From: Candidatus Bathyarchaeota archaeon
GTDB lineage: Archaea > Thermoproteota > Bathyarchaeia > Bathyarchaeales > Bathycorpusculaceae
Direction of reading: 5' to 3'
DNA length: 64,000 bases
Assembly (NCBI GenBank): GCA_963767735.1
Contig: CAVYES010000006.1
Location: forward strand, 1-64,000
Shown: positions 1-6,743 of the stretch, in pieces
How the letters are laid out: each line of letters starts with the position of its first letter
How positions within the stretch are numbered: the first letter of the stretch is position 1
The notes under the pieces: generated by a model
Database searches by the model: none
Told to the model about the DNA's origin: nothing
Seen by the model: only the letters and a program-made list of their open reading frames with translations
Position numbers and translations under genes: made by a program

Positions 1-51
1 TGTCTTTTAAATAGTAAAAAACATCATTGCGTTGGTCACACGTGAAAAAAT

Positions 52-1318
52 ATGACTGAACCTGAAATCGTAGAAGAAAAAGGAGCCAGATCCAAAAGAA
101 CCTGCCGATGAAGCCGTTGAACAAGTCCAAGCAGTTGAAGCAGTCAAACAAGATGAACCAGAAAAACCAGAATTAATAGACGAATTAACAGAAGAAAAAC
201 ATGAAGAAGAAACTGCACCAGACAAGAAAGAAAAGAAGTTAAAAGCAAAACCCGCCATAACCGAAGCAGCTGAACCCGAACCAGAAACAGCAGAACCAGA
301 ATTGATCGAAGAGGAACCTGAAGAAGAAACTGAGTCGCTCAAGACAAAATACCAGTTTATTGAAGACCTTCCGGGTGTTGGTCCAGCCACAGCACAGAAA
401 CTCCAGGAACTCGGCTATCACACGGTTGAATCATTAGCGATGGCCACGATACGTGAACTTGAGCCGGTCGGAGTGAGCGAGAAGAAGGCTTTTCAAAGAA
501 TGAGTGCAGCGCATTCCACGATGGGTCTTTCCTTTGTAAGGGCTGACGAACTTTTCAAGACAAGAGCGGCTGTTCAGCGTTTGACTAGCGAAATCGAAGC
601 TTTAGATAACCTTTTGGCTGGCGGGTTAGAAACACAAACCATCACGGAGTTCTATGGCGAATGTGACAGTGGCAAAAGTGAGGTGTGCCATCAGCTATGT
701 GTAAATGTGCAGTTGCCTCCTGAGCGCGGTGGCTTAGGCGGCGGCGCACTCTACTTGAACACTGAGACAACCTTCAGGCTTGAACGTATAGTGCAGAGCT
801 GAGCACTTAGGCTTGGATCCTCAGCAAGTAGCCAAAAACATCATCTACGCTGAAGCTTACACCTCTGATCATCAAATGTTTCTCTTAAAAACGCCGATGA
901 AATAATCAAGAAAAACAACATAAAACTAATCATTGTGGACTCTTTGACCGCGCACTTTCGAAACGAGTACCTGGGCAGAGAAATGTTAGCCCCAAGACAG
1001 CAGAAACTAAACAAGCACATGCACAAACTCATCTCTTTGGCAAGAGCGTTTAACTGCGTGGCAATAGTTACGAATCAGGTTATGGCTAAACCGGACCAGT
1101 TCTTCGGCGATGCTATACATCCGATTGGCGGAAACATTGTAGGTCACACAAGTCAAACGCGGATTTACCTTCGTAAACCAAAAAGTGGATCTACACGGAT
1201 CGCGAGACTTGTTTCAAGTCCCTATCTGCCGGAGGGTGAAGAAATCTACAAGATAACTGAGAACGGCATAGAGGAAGTAACTGAGGAAGAAAAAGCTGCG
1301 AAAAAAGGCAGCCGCTAA
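52..1318 (+). pseudogene. radA: RadA recombinase, disrupted, with an acidic Glu/Pro-rich N-terminal extension of about 90 aa
   Basis: HhH motif EDLPGVGPATAQKL, Walker A GECDSGKS (canonical GE[F/Y]GSGK[T/S]), Walker B LIIVDS, and RQQKLNKH and GGNIVGH motifs. Three indels (about 76-81, 797, 887) plus substitutions at conserved sites. TATA-like TTTTAAATA at 5-13. Confidence 0.8.
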
Positions 1319-1428
1319 ATCAAGCTGTTGGTTCATTTATGCGGGGTACGAGCGTAAAAAAGCTGGCTGGTTAAGAGACATCCTGACTTGTAACGCCTGC
1401 TCTTGAGATTTTTGGCTCAAAGTGGCTG

Positions 1429-1833
1429 TTAAACGTCGGGCAGTTTCCATCCTTCTTTTATTTTTTTCCTGATTATCTCTTGGATTGCTGGGACTGTTAG
1501 AGCAAAGTCGATGTGCTCGCAGTCATTGCTTTTGTCTAAGTCGCAGAATATCCCTTCTGGTTTGAAGTAGATGTCTGCTATCATGTGGAGTTTGCGATCC
1601 GTTATTCTTGCGCCGTCTGCGTCGATGTTGTAGTGTTCGAAACGCGGCATTTCTGCCATTTTGTACTGACTTAAAAGTTCCCTTAGAGCGTCCTTTATTA
1701 TTTCGGATCGGCTCTTGAATCCGTGTTTGCCGATTAACTTGTCCATTTCAACAACTATATCGTTTGGCAGCTTGATTGTTGTGTAGTTTCCTTCTATGGG
1801 GTCTTTCTCTATTCTCTTTGGCAACTCAATCAC
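1429..1833 (-). CDS. Ribbon-helix-helix (CopG/NikR-like) regulator with C-terminal putative Zn-binding domain
   Basis: YTTIKLPNDIVVEMDKLI..GFKSRSEIIKDALRELL RHH pattern; C-terminal CDLDKSNDCEH. Confidence 0.8.
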   Translation of the reverse strand: MIELPKRIEKDPIEGNYTTIKLPNDIVVEMDKLIGKHGFKSRSEIIKDALRELLSQYKMAEMPRFEHYNIDADGARITDRKLHMIADIYFKPEGIFCDLDKSNDCEHIDFALTVPAIQEIIRKKIKEGWKLPDV

Positions 1834-1840
1834 GATTTGA

Positions 1841-1858
1841 TTAGTAATGCATTACTAA
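1841..1858. promoter_or_regulatory. Perfect 18-bp palindromic operator TTAGTAATGCATTACTAA
   Basis: Perfect inverted repeat between divergent RHH genes; degenerate copy GTGGCAATATATTACTAA at 1900-1917 (13/18 match). Confidence 0.7.
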
Positions 1859-1979
1859 GATTATTATTTAACAATTCCTGTTAATAAATCACTCGCCTGG
1901 TGGCAATATATTACTAATAGATTGCAATAAACGCTTAAGTGGAACCCCTTTTATTATGCTATTATTAATAGGTGATTAA

Positions 1980-2150
1980 ATGGGCAAGAAAGAAGTGTAT
2001 GTAACAGTAAAGCTGCCAAAAACCTTGGTCGATGAAATCTTAGATCCCTTAGTTGGGGCGCATGGCTACTCAAGCAGAACTGAAGCCATAAAAGATGGCT
2101 TAAGAAGACTATCCGAAAAATACCAAAAAACAATATGTCGCGAGGCGTAG
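1980..2150 (+). CDS. Small RHH DNA-binding protein (56 aa; not in ORF track)
   Basis: MGKKEVYVTVKLPKTLVDEILDPLVGAHGYSSRTEAIKDGLRRLSEKYQKTICREA; AGGTGA RBS upstream; paralogous to the N-terminus of 1429-1833. Confidence 0.8.
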   Translation: MGKKEVYVTVKLPKTLVDEILDPLVGAHGYSSRTEAIKDGLRRLSEKYQKTICREA

Positions 2151-2374
2151 CGGCTTTGAAAAGCAAGAATTTTAGATGCACGCTTTGCTCAGGTAAAACC
2201 GAAAAGGTCTACGAGACAGAGCGCAACATATTTTTGCAATGTCCTCGCGACCATAAGGTTCCTAAAACTGAAAGACGCCCAGGTGACCCGCACAAGTATC
2301 ATGCACCAGTGTTTATGCTTCGCAAGACGGAATTTGAAGACTTTAGCAAGGCGACGATTGGTGGCGTAAGCTAA
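2135..2374 (+). CDS. Small putative Zn-finger protein
   Basis: CTLC...CPRDH motif; overlaps both neighbours in an operon. Confidence 0.6.
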   Translation: MSRGVAALKSKNFRCTLCSGKTEKVYETERNIFLQCPRDHKVPKTERRPGDPHKYHAPVFMLRKTEFEDFSKATIGGVS

Positions 2375-2607
2375 TGGAACATGCTAAGGTTTGCCCTTTT
2401 GCCGCTGCCAATCCACAGCAGGAAAACAGCGATTGCCTAGGCGACGCATGCGCATGTTACGTAAAAATGCACAAATCCATTCCTTCAGAACACTGCGAGA
2501 TTGAATTTTTCTACCGCTATAAGGGCTGCGGACTAGTCGCTCATGTTCCTTGGGAACTGGTCAAACGCGAAGATCTCAAAAAGGGCAAAACTAAACCAGT
2601 AAATTAA
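2374..2607 (+). CDS. Small Cys-rich hypothetical protein
   Basis: CPF...CLGDACAC...CGL pattern; TAATG stop/start coupling. Confidence 0.6.
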   Translation: MEHAKVCPFAAANPQQENSDCLGDACACYVKMHKSIPSEHCEIEFFYRYKGCGLVAHVPWELVKREDLKKGKTKPVN

Positions 2608-2645
2608 CTTCGGGAAAAAGATGAGTTATTGAAAGGTGGGAGGGA

Positions 2646-3098
2646 ATGGCTGAGCTTACGGATAATGCATCTACCCCAGATTGCATATTTGGCACCAAAG
2701 CCGGTTCAAATAACGGTAAGTCGGATTCTACCATGTCCGACGGCGCCAGCTCCTTATGCCCACTCGTCTATGTTCGGTACAAAGATCATGTGTTTTTTAA
2801 AAATATGCAAAATCCCAAAGCTGAAGCAATAGAGCGGGAGGCTATTGGTTGGGTAAAAGAGCAAACCGATGAGTTGTTACTTCTTGAGAATGATCGGGCT
2901 ATTCCAAGCCGTGGCAAGAATGTTAATGGGCTTATTATTTTGAAAAACTGCATCGTGGAAGCCCATCCTCTGCTATTACAAAATAATTTAAAATGGGTTT
3001 TAAATTCAGCAAAGCCTACAGTGAAGGATGAGTATGCGTTCCGACCATCGGAGCGAAAAACTCACTCCCAAAATTCTAAGGGAGAGAAGAAGCCATGA
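2646..3098 (+). CDS. Hypothetical protein, possible Sm/SH3-like beta-barrel
   Basis: LVYVRYKDH...IGWV...LLL...GLIILKNCIVE pattern; GGAGG RBS; ATGA overlap with the integrase. Confidence 0.55.
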   Translation: MAELTDNASTPDCIFGTKAGSNNGKSDSTMSDGASSLCPLVYVRYKDHVFFKNMQNPKAEAIEREAIGWVKEQTDELLLLENDRAIPSRGKNVNGLIILKNCIVEAHPLLLQNNLKWVLNSAKPTVKDEYAFRPSERKTHSQNSKGEKKP

Positions 3099-4525
3099 TC
3101 GAAAGAACAACAACCTTAGCCCCCGCTATAACTCGAACACGCAAACTCTCCATCGAACAATTAAAGGACCTTAAACTTCCGCTGATATTCCAACAAGACA
3201 TAATTATTATCGAAAGAAGCCTAAACGGCTGGAAACTACGAACGCCAATCAGCATAAACTTGGAAAAAGTCCTCGAAGCACAAGAAATCGGCTTAGTCGA
3301 ATACATCATAAAATCCTGCCTTAGTTATCAACCAAGCATAATCCCATACATCTTTGAAAACAAAAGCCTCGTAAAAGTAGCCCGCCATTTCTTTAGACAC
3401 CGCTCGGGCTCCCATGCAAGCTGCCTAATGTATGCAGTAAAGCTCCGAAAATACGCCATCTGGCTAGGACACAGCCCTGACACCATAATTCAAGACATAA
3501 AACCAATCGGTGCTATCCCCGATCCAATTAAGGTTCAAAACCACAGCGGCTTTCTTAACGATTACGTAGCTGAACTTCAAGACAACGGCTTAAAACCAAA
3601 CTCAGTTAACAATTGCATTAAAGCAGTCAAAACTTTCTACCGCGTAAACGGCGCTGAAGTAAAACTCTCTGAGCCTCTAGTCCGCAAAGCAGTCTACAAG
3701 GACAGAGCACCTAAACCAGAAGAAATCACCCTGATCCTAGACAAATCAGCCGTTCGAGAAAGCTTCATCATTGCAGCCATATCAACAGGCGGATTCCGAG
3801 AAGGAACATTCGCCAAACTAAAATACAGACACGTACGCGAAGACATAGAAGCCAATAGGATACCCATCCATATCCACGTCGAAGCTGCAATCACCAAAGG
3901 CAAATACCACGACTACGACACCTTCATTAACGCAGAAGCAAGCCAACTCCTGAAACTGTACATAGAGGACAGAAAACGCGGCACCAGATTTATGCCGCCA
4001 GAAGAACTCACCGACGACTCACCGCTAATCAGAAATGGTCGTATCGCCGACAGAGTACTTGGCGTTAGCGAAAAAACCATAAGCAAAATCGTCCACGAAG
4101 TCGCCGTTAGTACAAAAATCGCCAAAAAATTACCTGATAGCTGGATGTACAGTGTAAGGACACATAGCCTAAGAAAATTCTTTAGAACACAGATGAGCGC
4201 AGTAAAGCTTGATTCCGAAATCATCAACTACATGATGGGACACACAGTAGACACCTATGAGGACGTGCAAAGCTTAGGCATTGAGACACTAAGAAACATG
4301 TATTCATCAGCCGGATTAGCAATTAGACCAAAGACACAAGCAAACCGAATCGACCAACTCAAAGAAATCATCCGCGCCTGGGGAGAAAACCCCGAGGAAC
4401 TCCTAACCAGAGATGCATTATTGCGGGGGAACATAACTGAGACCTCAGAACAGACACACAATCACCAGCTATCGATCCTAGCCGAGCAACTAAAAGAGCT
4501 AATAAAGAAGGAGGTCTCAACATAA
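3095..4525 (+). CDS. Tyrosine recombinase/integrase
   Basis: Catalytic residues R (TGGFREG), K (TKGK), HxxR (HSLRKFF), H and Y (MMGHTVDTY); core-binding region (GLKPNSVNNCIKAVKTFY). Confidence 0.93.
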   Translation: MIERTTTLAPAITRTRKLSIEQLKDLKLPLIFQQDIIIIERSLNGWKLRTPISINLEKVLEAQEIGLVEYIIKSCLSYQPSIIPYIFENKSLVKVARHFFRHRSGSHASCLMYAVKLRKYAIWLGHSPDTIIQDIKPIGAIPDPIKVQNHSGFLNDYVAELQDNGLKPNSVNNCIKAVKTFYRVNGAEVKLSEPLVRKAVYKDRAPKPEEITLILDKSAVRESFIIAAISTGGFREGTFAKLKYRHVREDIEANRIPIHIHVEAAITKGKYHDYDTFINAEASQLLKLYIEDRKRGTRFMPPEELTDDSPLIRNGRIADRVLGVSEKTISKIVHEVAVSTKIAKKLPDSWMYSVRTHSLRKFFRTQMSAVKLDSEIINYMMGHTVDTYEDVQSLGIETLRNMYSSAGLAIRPKTQANRIDQLKEIIRAWGENPEELLTRDALLRGNITETSEQTHNHQLSILAEQLKELIKKEVST

Positions 4526-4628
4526 AAACAACCAAAAGACGGTACTTTTTCGCGTTCGCACCAGAAGAAACCAGCGGCCCCACCACAAGTCCTAACTTAA
4601 GAAAAAAGGATTCGCTTAAATAATTAAG

Positions 4629-4649
4629 CGAGTCCCAGCGGGCCCGCCA
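4629..4649 (+). repeat. Probable attR: tRNA 3'-end fragment CGAGTCCCAGCGGGCCCGCCA
   Basis: T-loop remnant, T-stem, acceptor strand CGGGCCC, discriminator G and CCA; fits archaeal GGGCCCG-acceptor tRNAs (Lys/Arg-like); 103 bp after the integrase. Confidence 0.75.
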
Positions 4650-4740
4650 TCTACCCATAAAAAATTTGTGCCTTAAAAGAAATCGGCTCAAAATTTTTTT
4701 TCTTGTTGATTAAAAAAATCAAAGAAATGGTTAAGGCTAT

Positions 4741-5418
4741 TTATTCTCTGCTTGAGAGTATCAAGATGTAGTCTGCTGTGTCGGCGCACATGTCTGCCGC
4801 TTGCTCAATGAATTCTATCAGGTCGTCGAATATTACCATGGCTCCGCAGTTCATGTCTGCGCCGTATTTCACGAATAATTTTTTAGTGTTAAGGTATTCA
4901 GCATCTATTGCGTGCTCTATTTCGCCGACTTTTTTTGCTTCATTTATGGCTTCTGTTGGGTTTGATGAGATTTTTTCTATACTGTTTCTTAATGTCTGTG
5001 CTGTTTCCACAAGTTTTCCGGTCATGAGAAGAGTTTTTTCGTTTAGCTCCGTCGGGATTTCAGCCCCAGAGAGCATTTCAAGGCATCTTGCGGCATCTTT
5101 AGTGTGGTCTGCCAGAGTGTCTAACCGTTTAACAAGGTGTAAGAGGTCTTCACGGTAATCTGCTACAAGAGCTGCACCCTTGGATAACTCCATGAAAACG
5201 TCTGTTCGAAGCTGGTCTACGCCCTCCTCAGTTTTATACAAGTTTTCAATGTATTTTTGGGCTTCTTTAAAGTTTTTTTCTGCAAAGCTTTTGGTTGCTT
5301 TATTCAGCCATGTTACTGTATCAAAAGCCTTTGTTATTTGATCATGAGCAAGTTCTAATCCTCTGTTTTTTCGGCGCTGTTCAAACCAATCGTAACTTTT
5401 TCTTTCCAATCTTATCAC
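4741..5418 (-). CDS. DUF47 / PhoU-like phosphate transport regulator
   Basis: Two EEGVD/EHAID helical repeats; REDLLHLVKRLDTLAD and IEQAADMCADTAD motifs. Confidence 0.85.
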   Translation of the reverse strand: MIRLERKSYDWFEQRRKNRGLELAHDQITKAFDTVTWLNKATKSFAEKNFKEAQKYIENLYKTEEGVDQLRTDVFMELSKGAALVADYREDLLHLVKRLDTLADHTKDAARCLEMLSGAEIPTELNEKTLLMTGKLVETAQTLRNSIEKISSNPTEAINEAKKVGEIEHAIDAEYLNTKKLFVKYGADMNCGAMVIFDDLIEFIEQAADMCADTADYILILSSRE

Positions 5419-5488
5419 TATTCTTACATTATTGAATAGTTTTCAGATATAACCCTTCTCTTAATGCTCATCCAAAGATAACTTTAAC

Positions 5489-5513
5489 GCACTCGTCTTT
5501 TTCTTACGAGTGC
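5489..5513. terminator. Stem-loop GCACTCGT-N9-ACGAGTGC
   Basis: Perfect 8-bp stem just downstream of the minus-strand small ORFs. Confidence 0.4.
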
Positions 5514-5534
5514 TTACATTTTTAGGAGTTACGA

Positions 5535-5621
5535 TTAGTATGCATCAATCGCCAGAAGCCAATCAACATGATCGCTCTTTTTCGCTTGTGCTCGCCTTGT
5601 GTTACCTGTTTTTTCCTTCAC
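5535..5621 (-). CDS. Candidate 28-aa peptide MKEKTGNTRRAQAKKSDHVDWLLAIDAY
   Basis: GTG start 7 nt after a GAGGGGG RBS; intergenic. Confidence 0.4.
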   Translation of the reverse strand: MKEKTGNTRRAQAKKSDHVDWLLAIDAY

Positions 5622-5661
5622 AATTCATCCCCCTCAATAATCTTAGATGTTTAACCATGCC

Positions 5662-5730
5662 TCAAACATGGATGAAGTACCATGGCGCTTCGAGTTCTGT
5701 GGATCGTTTTCTCATCTTCTTCTTCTGCAT
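5662..5730 (-). CDS. Candidate 22-aa peptide MQKKKMRKRSTELEAPWYFIHV
   Basis: Intergenic ORF downstream of TATA-like elements (about 5784-5814). Confidence 0.3.
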   Translation of the reverse strand: MQKKKMRKRSTELEAPWYFIHV

Positions 5731-5825
5731 GGCACTGTCATTAAACACTCTCTTTTTTTTGCTTTATTTGTACTTTCCAAATAGTATATAGAGAGTAACC
5801 TAGACTATATATTACAGATTTTATG

Positions 5826-6743
5826 TTAGCTTTCCAGAACGGTCTTAGCTAACCGCACTTTATCTTCTAAACTTTTCATCACAGTATCCGTCATTTTCAC
5901 TTTGATTCCAAGCTGCTCTATCCGGCTCTTTTCCTCAACATCTCTTATGTCAATCACATATGTATCAAGAAAATCCGCATAAAGCTTAGCAACAGAAAAC
6001 GCTGAAACCCCAAAACCTAAACCACGCAGCAGTTTATCTGCAGGCCCCTTAATCGGAGCACCAGCAACTATAGGGCTAACCCCGACAACTCTGGCATCTG
6101 TCTCCTTCAACGCGTCTCTGATTCCGTTAACCGAGAGGATAGTGCCGATGCTAACAATCGGATTGCTGGGACAAATAACAACCCTTTCCGCATCAATAAT
6201 TGAATTCACAACTTTAGGTGAAGGTTTCGCTTGAGCAGCACCGACAAATTCTACAGCTAAAACCTTATCCTTGGCTTGTCTTTTAACAAAATACTCTTCG
6301 AAATGGATTAACCCTTCCTCAATTTTTATCCAAGTCTCAAACTTATCATCCGTCATTGGCAAAATGGTGACTTTAAGCCCTAAAGTATGGCAAATCTGGT
6401 CGGTTACCTGCGAGAGTGTGAAACCTTTGTTTAACAAATTGGTCCGAAAAATATGAGTTGCAAAATCTTTATCGCCTAAATTGAACCATGTTTCTAACCC
6501 CAATTTTTTGATCATTTCGAGACATTGAAACGTGTCGCCTTTTATTCCCCAACCTTTCTCCTCGTCAACAATACCTGCCAAAGTGTACGCCACAATGTCG
6601 ATGTCTGGCGACACATGTAATCCGAACATGTCAATGTCATCGCCAGTATTCACAATTACCGAAACGTCTTCCTCTTTAACAAGCTTCACTAAACCCGTCA
6701 GGAACCTAGCTGCGCCAACGCCACCTGCTAAAGCCGTAATCAT
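5826..6743 (-). CDS. cofD: 2-phospho-L-lactate transferase (F420 biosynthesis)
   Basis: LAGGVGAARF, VNTGDD, SPDID, LGDKD, PSNPIVSIG and KGPADK motifs. Confidence 0.95.
   Translation of the reverse strand: MITALAGGVGAARFLTGLVKLVKEEDVSVIVNTGDDIDMFGLHVSPDIDIVAYTLAGIVDEEKGWGIKGDTFQCLEMIKKLGLETWFNLGDKDFATHIFRTNLLNKGFTLSQVTDQICHTLGLKVTILPMTDDKFETWIKIEEGLIHFEEYFVKRQAKDKVLAVEFVGAAQAKPSPKVVNSIIDAERVVICPSNPIVSIGTILSVNGIRDALKETDARVVGVSPIVAGAPIKGPADKLLRGLGFGVSAFSVAKLYADFLDTYVIDIRDVEEKSRIEQLGIKVKMTDTVMKSLEDKVRLAKTVLES

Follow-up and report, generated by a model that had tools for sequence, protein, structure and literature searches.

Does a small integrated element of Bathyarchaeia carry its own copy of the recombinase gene radA and, if so, where does that element end? 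The question is raised by the left end of the window, by which is meant the whole 64-kb stretch of DNA that was analysed, the first 64 kb of contig C6 (CAVYES010000006.1) of a Candidatus Bathyarchaeota genome (GCA_963767735.1). This genome, labelled G000, is a metagenome-assembled genome (MAG) of 3.04 Mb in 10 contigs, with an estimated completeness of 94.9% and an estimated contamination of 2.5%. At the start of the window a radA-type gene, two ribbon-helix-helix (RHH) regulator genes and a tyrosine integrase gene are followed by a fragment of a tRNA 3' end, and an original prediction, made from the sequence alone, had taken the whole as one element bordered by that fragment. The reading preferred here, to which a probability of about 0.65 is given, is that a small mobile module of Bathyarchaeia, associated with an integrase, is present here as one copy at window 1-4586, and that it ends short of the fragment. 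Position 1 is the contig end of C6, and sequence further left is not in the contig. Coordinates without a contig name are those of the window; other labels denote genomes (G), loci or contigs (L), fetched proteins (P) and public sequencing runs (X), and the relatives compared are Bathyarchaeia of peat and soil.

The evidence that carries this reading is a repeat with an exact right end. Window 1-4586 (the window copy, at the start of C6) is repeated at C5:1-4588 (C5a) with 98.3% identity and at C5:134814-139432 (C5b) with 88.5% identity, the latter two lying 130 kb apart on the same contig. All three copies stop at CCAGCGGCC[C/T]CACCAC, after which the right flanks are wholly different. In the window this end is a 16-nt attachment (att) core of the tRNA-Pro(GGG) 3'-end type, CCAGCGGCCCCACCAC, at 4571-4586 on the + strand; the host tRNA-Pro(GGG), at C7:196861-196938, has CCCAGCGGCCTCA as its end and shares 13 nt with the core. 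A duplicated tRNA 3' end is present at the integrase-side border in 3/3 copies. The integrases of C5a and the window copy are 99.8% identical, and the two copies diverge exactly at the core end. C5b is ~98% identical to the window over its first 3 kb, which span radA to the partner gene p150, and its integrase is 70% identical in amino acids. The congener G036 has the same block at 94% identity in one place, again at a contig end, together with its own host radA and with yet another right flank at the core; among 36 congeners searched, the module is present only in G000 (three places) and G036. The same block also occurs on ten metagenome contigs from peat and soil, 89-98% identical, where it is joined to a third integrase type (72% amino-acid identity) with a tRNA-Lys-type core. 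After this Lys-type core the metagenome copies have three different flanks, two of them on contigs that include radA sequence. When G000, G036 and the metagenome contigs are counted together, the different junctions of the radA block with its right flank number at least six, and every one of them falls exactly at a core. The type of integrase changes together with the core at the p150/int boundary, near window 3065, and the cargo block remains 89-98% identical. The right border of the module is firm; the left border is not.

The integrase (476 aa; 3095-4525, + strand) was found as a single intact open reading frame (ORF) in the ORF list and gave integrase matches in Pfam, NCBIfam and PHROG scans, the first two below curated cut-offs, and the original prediction was right that it is whole and is not split by an att site. 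PHROG integrase families match it with a best E of 2.5e-9, and no PDB sequence match was found at E < 0.3. R235, K268/K270, H357-x-x-R360, Y388 and Y403 are invariant across 35 homologues, as is G382, which stands directly before H383 of the window protein; H383 is not among the listed conserved columns. The catalytic roles of these residues are presumably those suggested by the order of the motif, with either tyrosine a possible nucleophile. The integrase start overlaps (ATGA) the stop of p150 (150 aa; 2646-3098, + strand), a conserved partner that matched no protein family. In a survey of the integrase family with one genome per species, which gave 80 loci, nearly all from Bathyarchaeia, p150 lies upstream of int in 71 of the 80. 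The predicted structure of p150 has a small beta-barrel core and a basic tail (predicted local distance difference test score, pLDDT, 64; core 80-92), and the PDB gave no match at E <= 0.001, only weak Sm/SH3-like rows. p150 may be an accessory DNA-binding protein. At L048:9389-11434, in one genome, p150 and integrase are fused in one 682-aa ORF.

Beyond the integrase stop, a spacer (4526-4570, + strand) carrying an A-rich/GGTAC/T-rich motif, recognised as family-wide by comparison of related loci, leads to the core. Of 78 listed loci, 21 have an ARAGORN-called tRNA on the opposite strand that starts 19-48 nt past the integrase stop, with a few more recognised by eye, and most others have a + sense 14-18-nt tRNA 3' end at that place. 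These + sense cores are of the Asn and Lys types, of the Pro(GGG) type in ~12 loci, and of the Arg type (CCAGCGGGCCCGCCA) in five, namely after the integrases of L068, L071, L076, L078 and L079. As cores recur directly after the integrase in related loci, the post-integrase core is taken to be the att of the family, and the att of the window is therefore the Pro-type 16-mer and not the Arg fragment. Since the core lies 45 nt past the int stop and the int ORF is whole, the arrangement is that of type II (pNOB8-type) and not of type I (SSV-type) integrases. The core is also present as a direct repeat 7 kb upstream in L082, and a second core lies ~2 kb downstream in L021, L039 and L079; arrays of cores therefore occur. 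Both core orientations, the intact opposite-strand tRNA and the + sense 3' fragment, are seen within the same integrase family (L016-L089), even for the same tRNA species (Asn, Lys, Pro), which one fixed attP orientation does not explain. Family integrases, 43-68% identical, are also found on 15-34-kb contigs listed as viral in IMG/VR (L180-L184).

A fourth radA, at C7:94017-95027, is the housekeeping gene. Its flanks match those of 16/16 relatives' radA loci, and its product has 81% amino-acid identity to module RadA; the place of a single-copy gene in conserved synteny is filled by this gene and not by module radA. A radA match at ~69-76% nucleotide identity to module radA is found in 34/36 congeners. 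Since the block is repeated three times and a separate, housekeeping radA stands in conserved synteny on C7, the module radA is accessory cargo linked to the integrase, as originally predicted. In a RadA tree of 31 rows (from which L154, L161 and L162 were omitted for failure of an anchor motif, and L099, L100, L109 and L157 for want of an ORF that passed the filter), the module RadAs form one clade (100/100) with a stem of 0.26, inside a genus clade with a median tip length of 0.02. When G000 is compared with G036, module radA has a ratio of non-synonymous to synonymous substitution rates (dN/dS) of 0.050, and host radA one of 0.047; dS between module and host radA is saturated. By these sequence comparisons module RadA is fast-evolving yet conserved, under strong purifying selection.

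The protein itself has also kept the features of a recombinase. The radA genes of the sister copies are intact, at 422 aa, and the product tested scores 444.8 against a cut-off of 259 for NF003301 and 427.3 against 361 for TIGR02236, matches Pfam Rad51 and HHH_5, and is of the type matched by PHROG 97, 'UvsX-like recombinase' (E 2.8e-20). A protein search returned about eight clusters of the module-RadA type (P0001-P0008), 86-96% identical, and P0012 at 72%. In 9/9 fetched sequences (P0001-P0006, P0008, P0012, P0055) the P-loop reads GECDSGKS, where host RadAs have GEYGSGKS, and an acidic N-terminal tail (MTEPEI..., of variable length, 45-100 aa) is present. Module and host RadA agree in the FVRA stretch and in the L2 and Walker B regions, and the Walker A lysine is kept; FVRA (FxxA-like), L2 and Walker B are here assumed to be functional motifs. 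On the basis of its clade, selection, equivalog scores and kept motifs, module RadA is taken to be functional and specialised, and, since selection maintains it as a protein, an ability to form recombinase filaments has probably been retained. With its altered P-loop and acidic tail it provides a natural variant to set against host RadA. It is doubtful, although conceivable, that the GECD-P-loop clade is a dedicated recombinase of mobile elements, which would either drive homology-based spread and module swapping or co-polymerise with host RadA and so tune recombination for the element. The first of these options would explain copies without attL, the mosaic radA tract described below and the exchange of integrases at the p150/int boundary. 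Were a dedicated role true, a cell-derived Rad51-type recombinase would have been domesticated by a minimal archaeal integrative element. A second radA in G017 was considered as a further module copy and rejected; it is of host type (81% to host, 77% to module) and lies on a 3.4-kb contig.

The backbone of the module would accordingly comprise the RHH pair with a palindromic region, two Cys-rich proteins, p150 and the tyrosine integrase, and recombination would take place at a 14-17-nt tRNA 3'-end core 20-70 nt past the integrase stop, here of the Pro(GGG) type. The module would at one time have taken up a full-length host radA within the genus, giving rise to the separate GECDSGKS, acidic-tailed clade. 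We infer that integrase and core together move the module and that its RadA is active.

The left border is less clear. Window 1-51 (+ strand) comprises the contig start and a radA promoter remnant (TTTTAAATA at 5-13), and the TTCACTTTCACT motif, found upstream at C5b and at host radA genes, would fall to the left of the C6 contig end. The left sides of the window copy, C5a and the G036 copy are all cut by contig ends, and among the other contig ends of the assembly none overlaps the start of the repeat or finishes in a core or a tRNA. Metagenome and viral contig sets gave no match to a 24-nt word taken from window 22-45, and one Logan contig (X5 record 25) extends 397 nt to the left of window position 1.

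Several observations weigh against the mobile-module reading. In C5b, L169, L170 and L176, homology runs 149 nt to the left of window position 1, as far as C5:134665, and this extra stretch has TTCACTTTCACTCACCCCTCC ~30 nt before a TATA box, in the same layout as at host radA on C7; with homology and a radA-type upstream motif to its left, position 1 is probably not the true border of the element. C5b and L169 have a common left neighbourhood, with an FtsX permease gene, at 78% identity only, as would be expected equally of a locus long resident there and of a mobile one. No second Pro core is present on C5 besides the copies' own ends (<=2 mismatches allowed), no Pro or Lys core lies upstream in L169, L170 or L176, the search in L169 reaching up to 11 kb upstream, and no intact tRNA or left att was found at C5b or at the metagenome copies with a readable left side. 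The intact tRNA or direct repeat that marks the other border of a tRNA-integrated element was therefore not found at C5b or L169, and, as it was found for no copy, the left border is not fixed. In addition, the variable right flanks could stem from other DNA integrating at the core, and radA is linked to the integrase in only one of the 80 related integrase loci (L036, which is G036). The window integrase falls below curated cut-offs of the profile hidden Markov models, scoring 23.0 against 27.1 for Pfam Phage_integrase and 44.9 against 220 for NCBIfam XerA_Arch, and the sequence comes from a MAG of 10 contigs whose contamination is estimated at 2.5%. Between the FtsX gene and radA the inserts differ, C5b having small winged helix-turn-helix genes and L169 a methyltransferase-like ORF and a second ORF, which, read by eye, may be a restriction-modification pair. 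Two candidates for a left-hand match were discarded: a CAGCGG hexamer where left homology starts in C5b and L169, which is similar to a portion of the core, has too few letters to be counted, and the C5b left flank shares only 37 nt (E 0.003) with the right end of C5 (copy C5c).

These observations lend themselves to another explanation, in which the stretch from radA to p150 is a resident chromosomal paralogue locus at an integration hot spot, homologous recombination gives rise to its copies and mosaics, and the integrase has no part in moving radA. The common left neighbourhood of C5b and L169, at species-level divergence, and the missing left att would then be expected, and the same would hold for the swap of integrase and core at ~3065 beside a conserved cargo and for the mosaic allele tract in the window radA. 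A resident locus is nevertheless unlikely, as it sits poorly with three copies in one genome, with the near-identical C5a and window integrases, whose copies part at the core end and not inside a gene, and with the different right flank found at the core in G036.

If the mobile module ends at 4586, the tRNA-Arg fragment beyond it requires an origin of its own. The feature at 4604-4649 (+ strand) is read as a relic attR, made up of a hairpin arm (4604-4628) and the displaced 3' end of a tRNA-Arg(GCG) (4633-4649). The latter, TCCCAGCGGGCCCGCCA, is an exact 17-mer, matched in 0/100 shuffles; it equals the last 17 nt of tRNA-Arg(CCG) at C6:100948-101026 and, except for the unencoded CCA, the end of tRNA-Arg(GCG) at C5:74218-74293. 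The + strand tRNA 3' fragment that was originally predicted is therefore real in these 17 positions, whereas the first four of its 21 nt (CGAG) are unlike the tRNA (AAAT). It lies 47 nt past the end of the three-copy repeat, and thus outside it, and the 44-nt unit of hairpin arm and core to which it belongs recurs at C5:76627-76670. To its right is the ancestral chromosomal flank (4650-6743, - strand), which comprises TCTACCCATAAAAAA, a DUF47/PhoU-like gene (4741-5418) and cofD (5826-6743); the DUF47-cofD pair occurs once in the genome. The site was compared in relatives, as had been suggested: an intact + strand tRNA-Arg(GCG) adjoins DUF47-cofD on the left in 6/29 relatives' loci, including 4/6 of the closest, and a 44-53-nt tRNA 3' fragment is found in that place in 2/29. 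In G018 the order is tRNA-Arg(GCG), a 5.5-kb insert without this integrase, a 44-nt fragment, TCTTCCCATAAAAAA and DUF47, and G018 and the window have the same TCT(A/T)CCCATAAAAAA flank after the fragment. The synteny in relatives and the G018 pattern therefore identify the Arg fragment as the displaced original end of the tRNA, a relic attR. In G000 itself, tRNA-Arg(GCG) has kept its upstream synteny and its 3' tail has been replaced; it is followed by a 2.3-kb insert encoding a surface protein and then by the second, attR-like arm-plus-core unit. With the tRNA on C5 and its old flank on C6, a rearrangement appears to have occurred, as judged from broken synteny.

A simple account of the locus, and the one originally favoured, is a single element in tRNA-Arg, with the intact tRNA just left of the contig start, 4629-4649 as attR, and everything from radA to the integrase inside. 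In its favour, the Arg fragment does exist and represents the 3' end of the ancestral tRNA beside DUF47, five related integrases precede the same CCAGCGGGCCCGCCA core, and its orientation logic (tRNA, element, + sense fragment) holds true in G018. It is nonetheless improbable, for the three-copy repeat stops at 4586, on a different core of the tRNA-Pro(GGG) type, before the Arg fragment is reached, and no Arg fragment follows the core in the other two copies. Moreover, the intact tRNA-Arg(GCG) is placed on C5 and not left of the window, with its own arm-plus-core 2.3 kb downstream and >500 kb of contig beyond, and tRNA-Arg(CCG) is found 96 kb away on the right-hand side, where the account needs it on the left. 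The module reading would instead hold that an older element had integrated into tRNA-Arg(GCG) beside DUF47-cofD, that the window copy came to lie 17 nt from that element's right arm, either by landing there or through recombination, and that a later rearrangement parted tRNA-Arg(GCG) from its displaced 3' end; the window radA would then have been broken by three indels, or mis-called in assembly. A tRNA-tail-like fragment (CCAGCGGACCCGCCAC) is also present at C7:305828-305843, ~55 nt downstream of an intact tRNA-Arg(TCT), and is probably a further integration scar.

The window's own radA (52-1318, + strand) is an element-type radA, as its original assignment to this gene family had it, with a frame that is broken here and open only in the pieces 302-802 and 935-1318. 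By comparison with both C5a and C5b it has three indels: an A is gained at 77, AT is lost after 796 and a G is lost at 887. Of these, the second and the third are found in 0/8 other copies that could be aligned there. In region 200-900 the window radA has 42 unique differences, of which 29 of 38 substitutions fall at third codon positions by hand count, and a divergent allele tract at ~340-830 (dN/dS 0.07, dS 0.33) differs by ~8-10% from every allele compared. Gene conversion from host radA was rejected as the source of this tract, since only 11/42 differences match the C7 allele; the tract stems from another functional module allele, and the window radA is therefore a mosaic. The gene may be a real pseudogene or may carry consensus errors of the assembler. 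That the whole arrangement is an artefact, the copies at the starts of C5 and C6 being haplotypes or mis-joins of one locus and the frameshifts consensus errors, is very improbable: both contigs do start at the same base of the repeat, one indel of the three alters the length of a homopolymer, Logan short-read contigs from other runs have intact sequence at positions 77, 796 and 886, and the genome carries a 2.5% contamination estimate, but C5a and C5b stand 130 kb apart on one contig, the DUF47-cofD flank on C6 is single-copy, the 39 C6-specific substitutions, mostly at third codon positions with a dN/dS of 0.07, indicate a real allele and not noise, and in run X2 the AT at 796 is present in only 4.1 of 11.1 depth. 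Among the fetched proteins, P0055 is a module RadA shortened by a frameshift after ...LTAHF, and a broken module radA is therefore not unique to the window.

Elements of the kind described here are already known; what makes this one a new form is its RadA cargo, clade-specific and under selection, together with its architecture of integrase, p150 and core. Tyrosine-integrase elements at archaeal tRNA genes are well known, and a full-length RadA under purifying selection in a 4.6-kb integrase-only module differs from them. A review of archaeal tyrosine recombinases distinguishes type I from type II and treats the lengths of att sites and the inversions that elements bring about (PMC8371274). 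Like pNOB8-type (type II, lambda-like) integrases and thaumarchaeal cryptic integrated elements, the module has an int gene that is whole after integration, tRNA gene targets with short att identity, and a small cargo with RHH-type regulators and without virion or replication genes (PMC8371274; PMC6563490). Unlike these, its integrase is under the Pfam and NCBIfam cut-offs, it has a partner gene for a predicted beta-barrel protein, fused to the integrase in one locus, the core of its family stands directly past the integrase stop in either orientation, no attL was found, and it carries a full-length RadA. For the thaumarchaeal element NitGar-E5, Krupovic et al. 2019 reported a PolB operon with a RadA homologue that is inactivated (PMC6563490). 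The module likewise has a RecA/RadA-family gene inside an archaeal integrated element; in contrast to that inactivated homologue, module RadA is full length with a helix-hairpin-helix (HhH) domain, passes equivalog cut-offs and has a dN/dS of 0.05. RadA and RecA/RadB-like genes are also named on haloarchaeal virus maps in a figure legend of a preprint, in its section on haloarchaeal and nanohaloarchaeal viromes (10.1101/2025.02.15.638363). As in tailed viruses with UvsX-like recombinases, a mobile element here has its own RecA-superfamily strand-exchange protein; unlike those large, replicating viruses, the module is ~4.6 kb long, lacks replication genes and has a RadA that would have been captured from the host genus. 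The Thermococcales elements pTN3 and TKV2/TKV3 offer a parallel in the several related integrated elements per genome, the reshuffled tRNA/att flanks and the chimeric modules (PMC5495485; PMC8371274). The module integrases are, unlike theirs, not of the suicidal type, and the rearrangements proposed here are read from broken synteny only. A literature search, in which supplements were not covered, found only the inactivated NitGar-E5 homologue and the RadA named in that figure legend, and nothing on small bathyarchaeal integrase elements with a full-length RadA. The locus also provides a case of related elements apparently scrambling tRNA-flank synteny in Bathyarchaeia.

The genes between radA and p150 are small. 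A 134-aa RHH regulator with a CopG/NikR-type N-terminus (1429-1833, - strand; Pfam RHH_1 31.3 bits against a cut-off of 20.5) is 100% identical across all three copies. A 56-aa RHH-like protein (1980-2150, + strand; PHROG 38461, E 1.3e-8) is 51% identical to the N-terminus of the former, and the two correspond to the RHH pair of the original prediction. Between them lies a divergent control region (1834-1979), with a perfect 18-nt palindrome, TTAGTAATG/CATTACTAA, at 1841-1858 and related half-sites at 1905-1920 and 1959-1971, which are candidate RHH operators. Downstream, a 79-aa Cys/His-containing protein (2135-2374, + strand) and a 77-aa Cys-rich protein (2374-2607, + strand) matched no family; the latter recurs in related elements. 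No tRNA was called within the 64-kb window by ARAGORN and Rfam, and Rfam gave nothing relevant in the window or in six loci.

Further Pro-type sequences are found elsewhere in the genome. A 2.6-kb flank containing a hemerythrin gene is duplicated at 97% identity (C8:1-2634 and C5:139415-142049), with a Pro-type core before each copy, and in G004 the same flank follows a degenerate 26-nt tRNA-Pro-like tail. The hemerythrin-flank sites in G000 and G004 look like a conserved Pro-type attR. C8:2632 was considered as an empty site for C5b and rejected; its core and right flank agree (the flank at 97%), but its left side is another and no tRNA is present. At C8:247290-247382 a Pro-type 16-mer (CCAGCGGCCCCACCAA, at C8:247364) ends a stretch with TTGGTGG...CCACCAA pairing potential, in which ARAGORN and Rfam found no tRNA or RNA family. 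Another contig start, C10:1-5000, consists of long degenerate tandem repeats, 72-76% self-similar at several offsets.

Finally, the motif TT(T)CACTTTCACT[CT]A[CT]CCCTCC is found ~30 nt before the TATA box of radA-family genes. Its sites are C5:134767-134790, C7 ~93900 (before host radA) and C6:492928 (before a RadA-like paralogue at C6:493184), with further sites at C4:254458, C4:169887 and C5:593046. Of 24 relatives' loci with a filter-found radA, 15 have the motif (<=1 mismatch) at a distance of 135-215 nt before the codons for the RadA HhH. Such a conserved motif before radA-family genes could mark a DNA-repair regulon and may serve as its operator.

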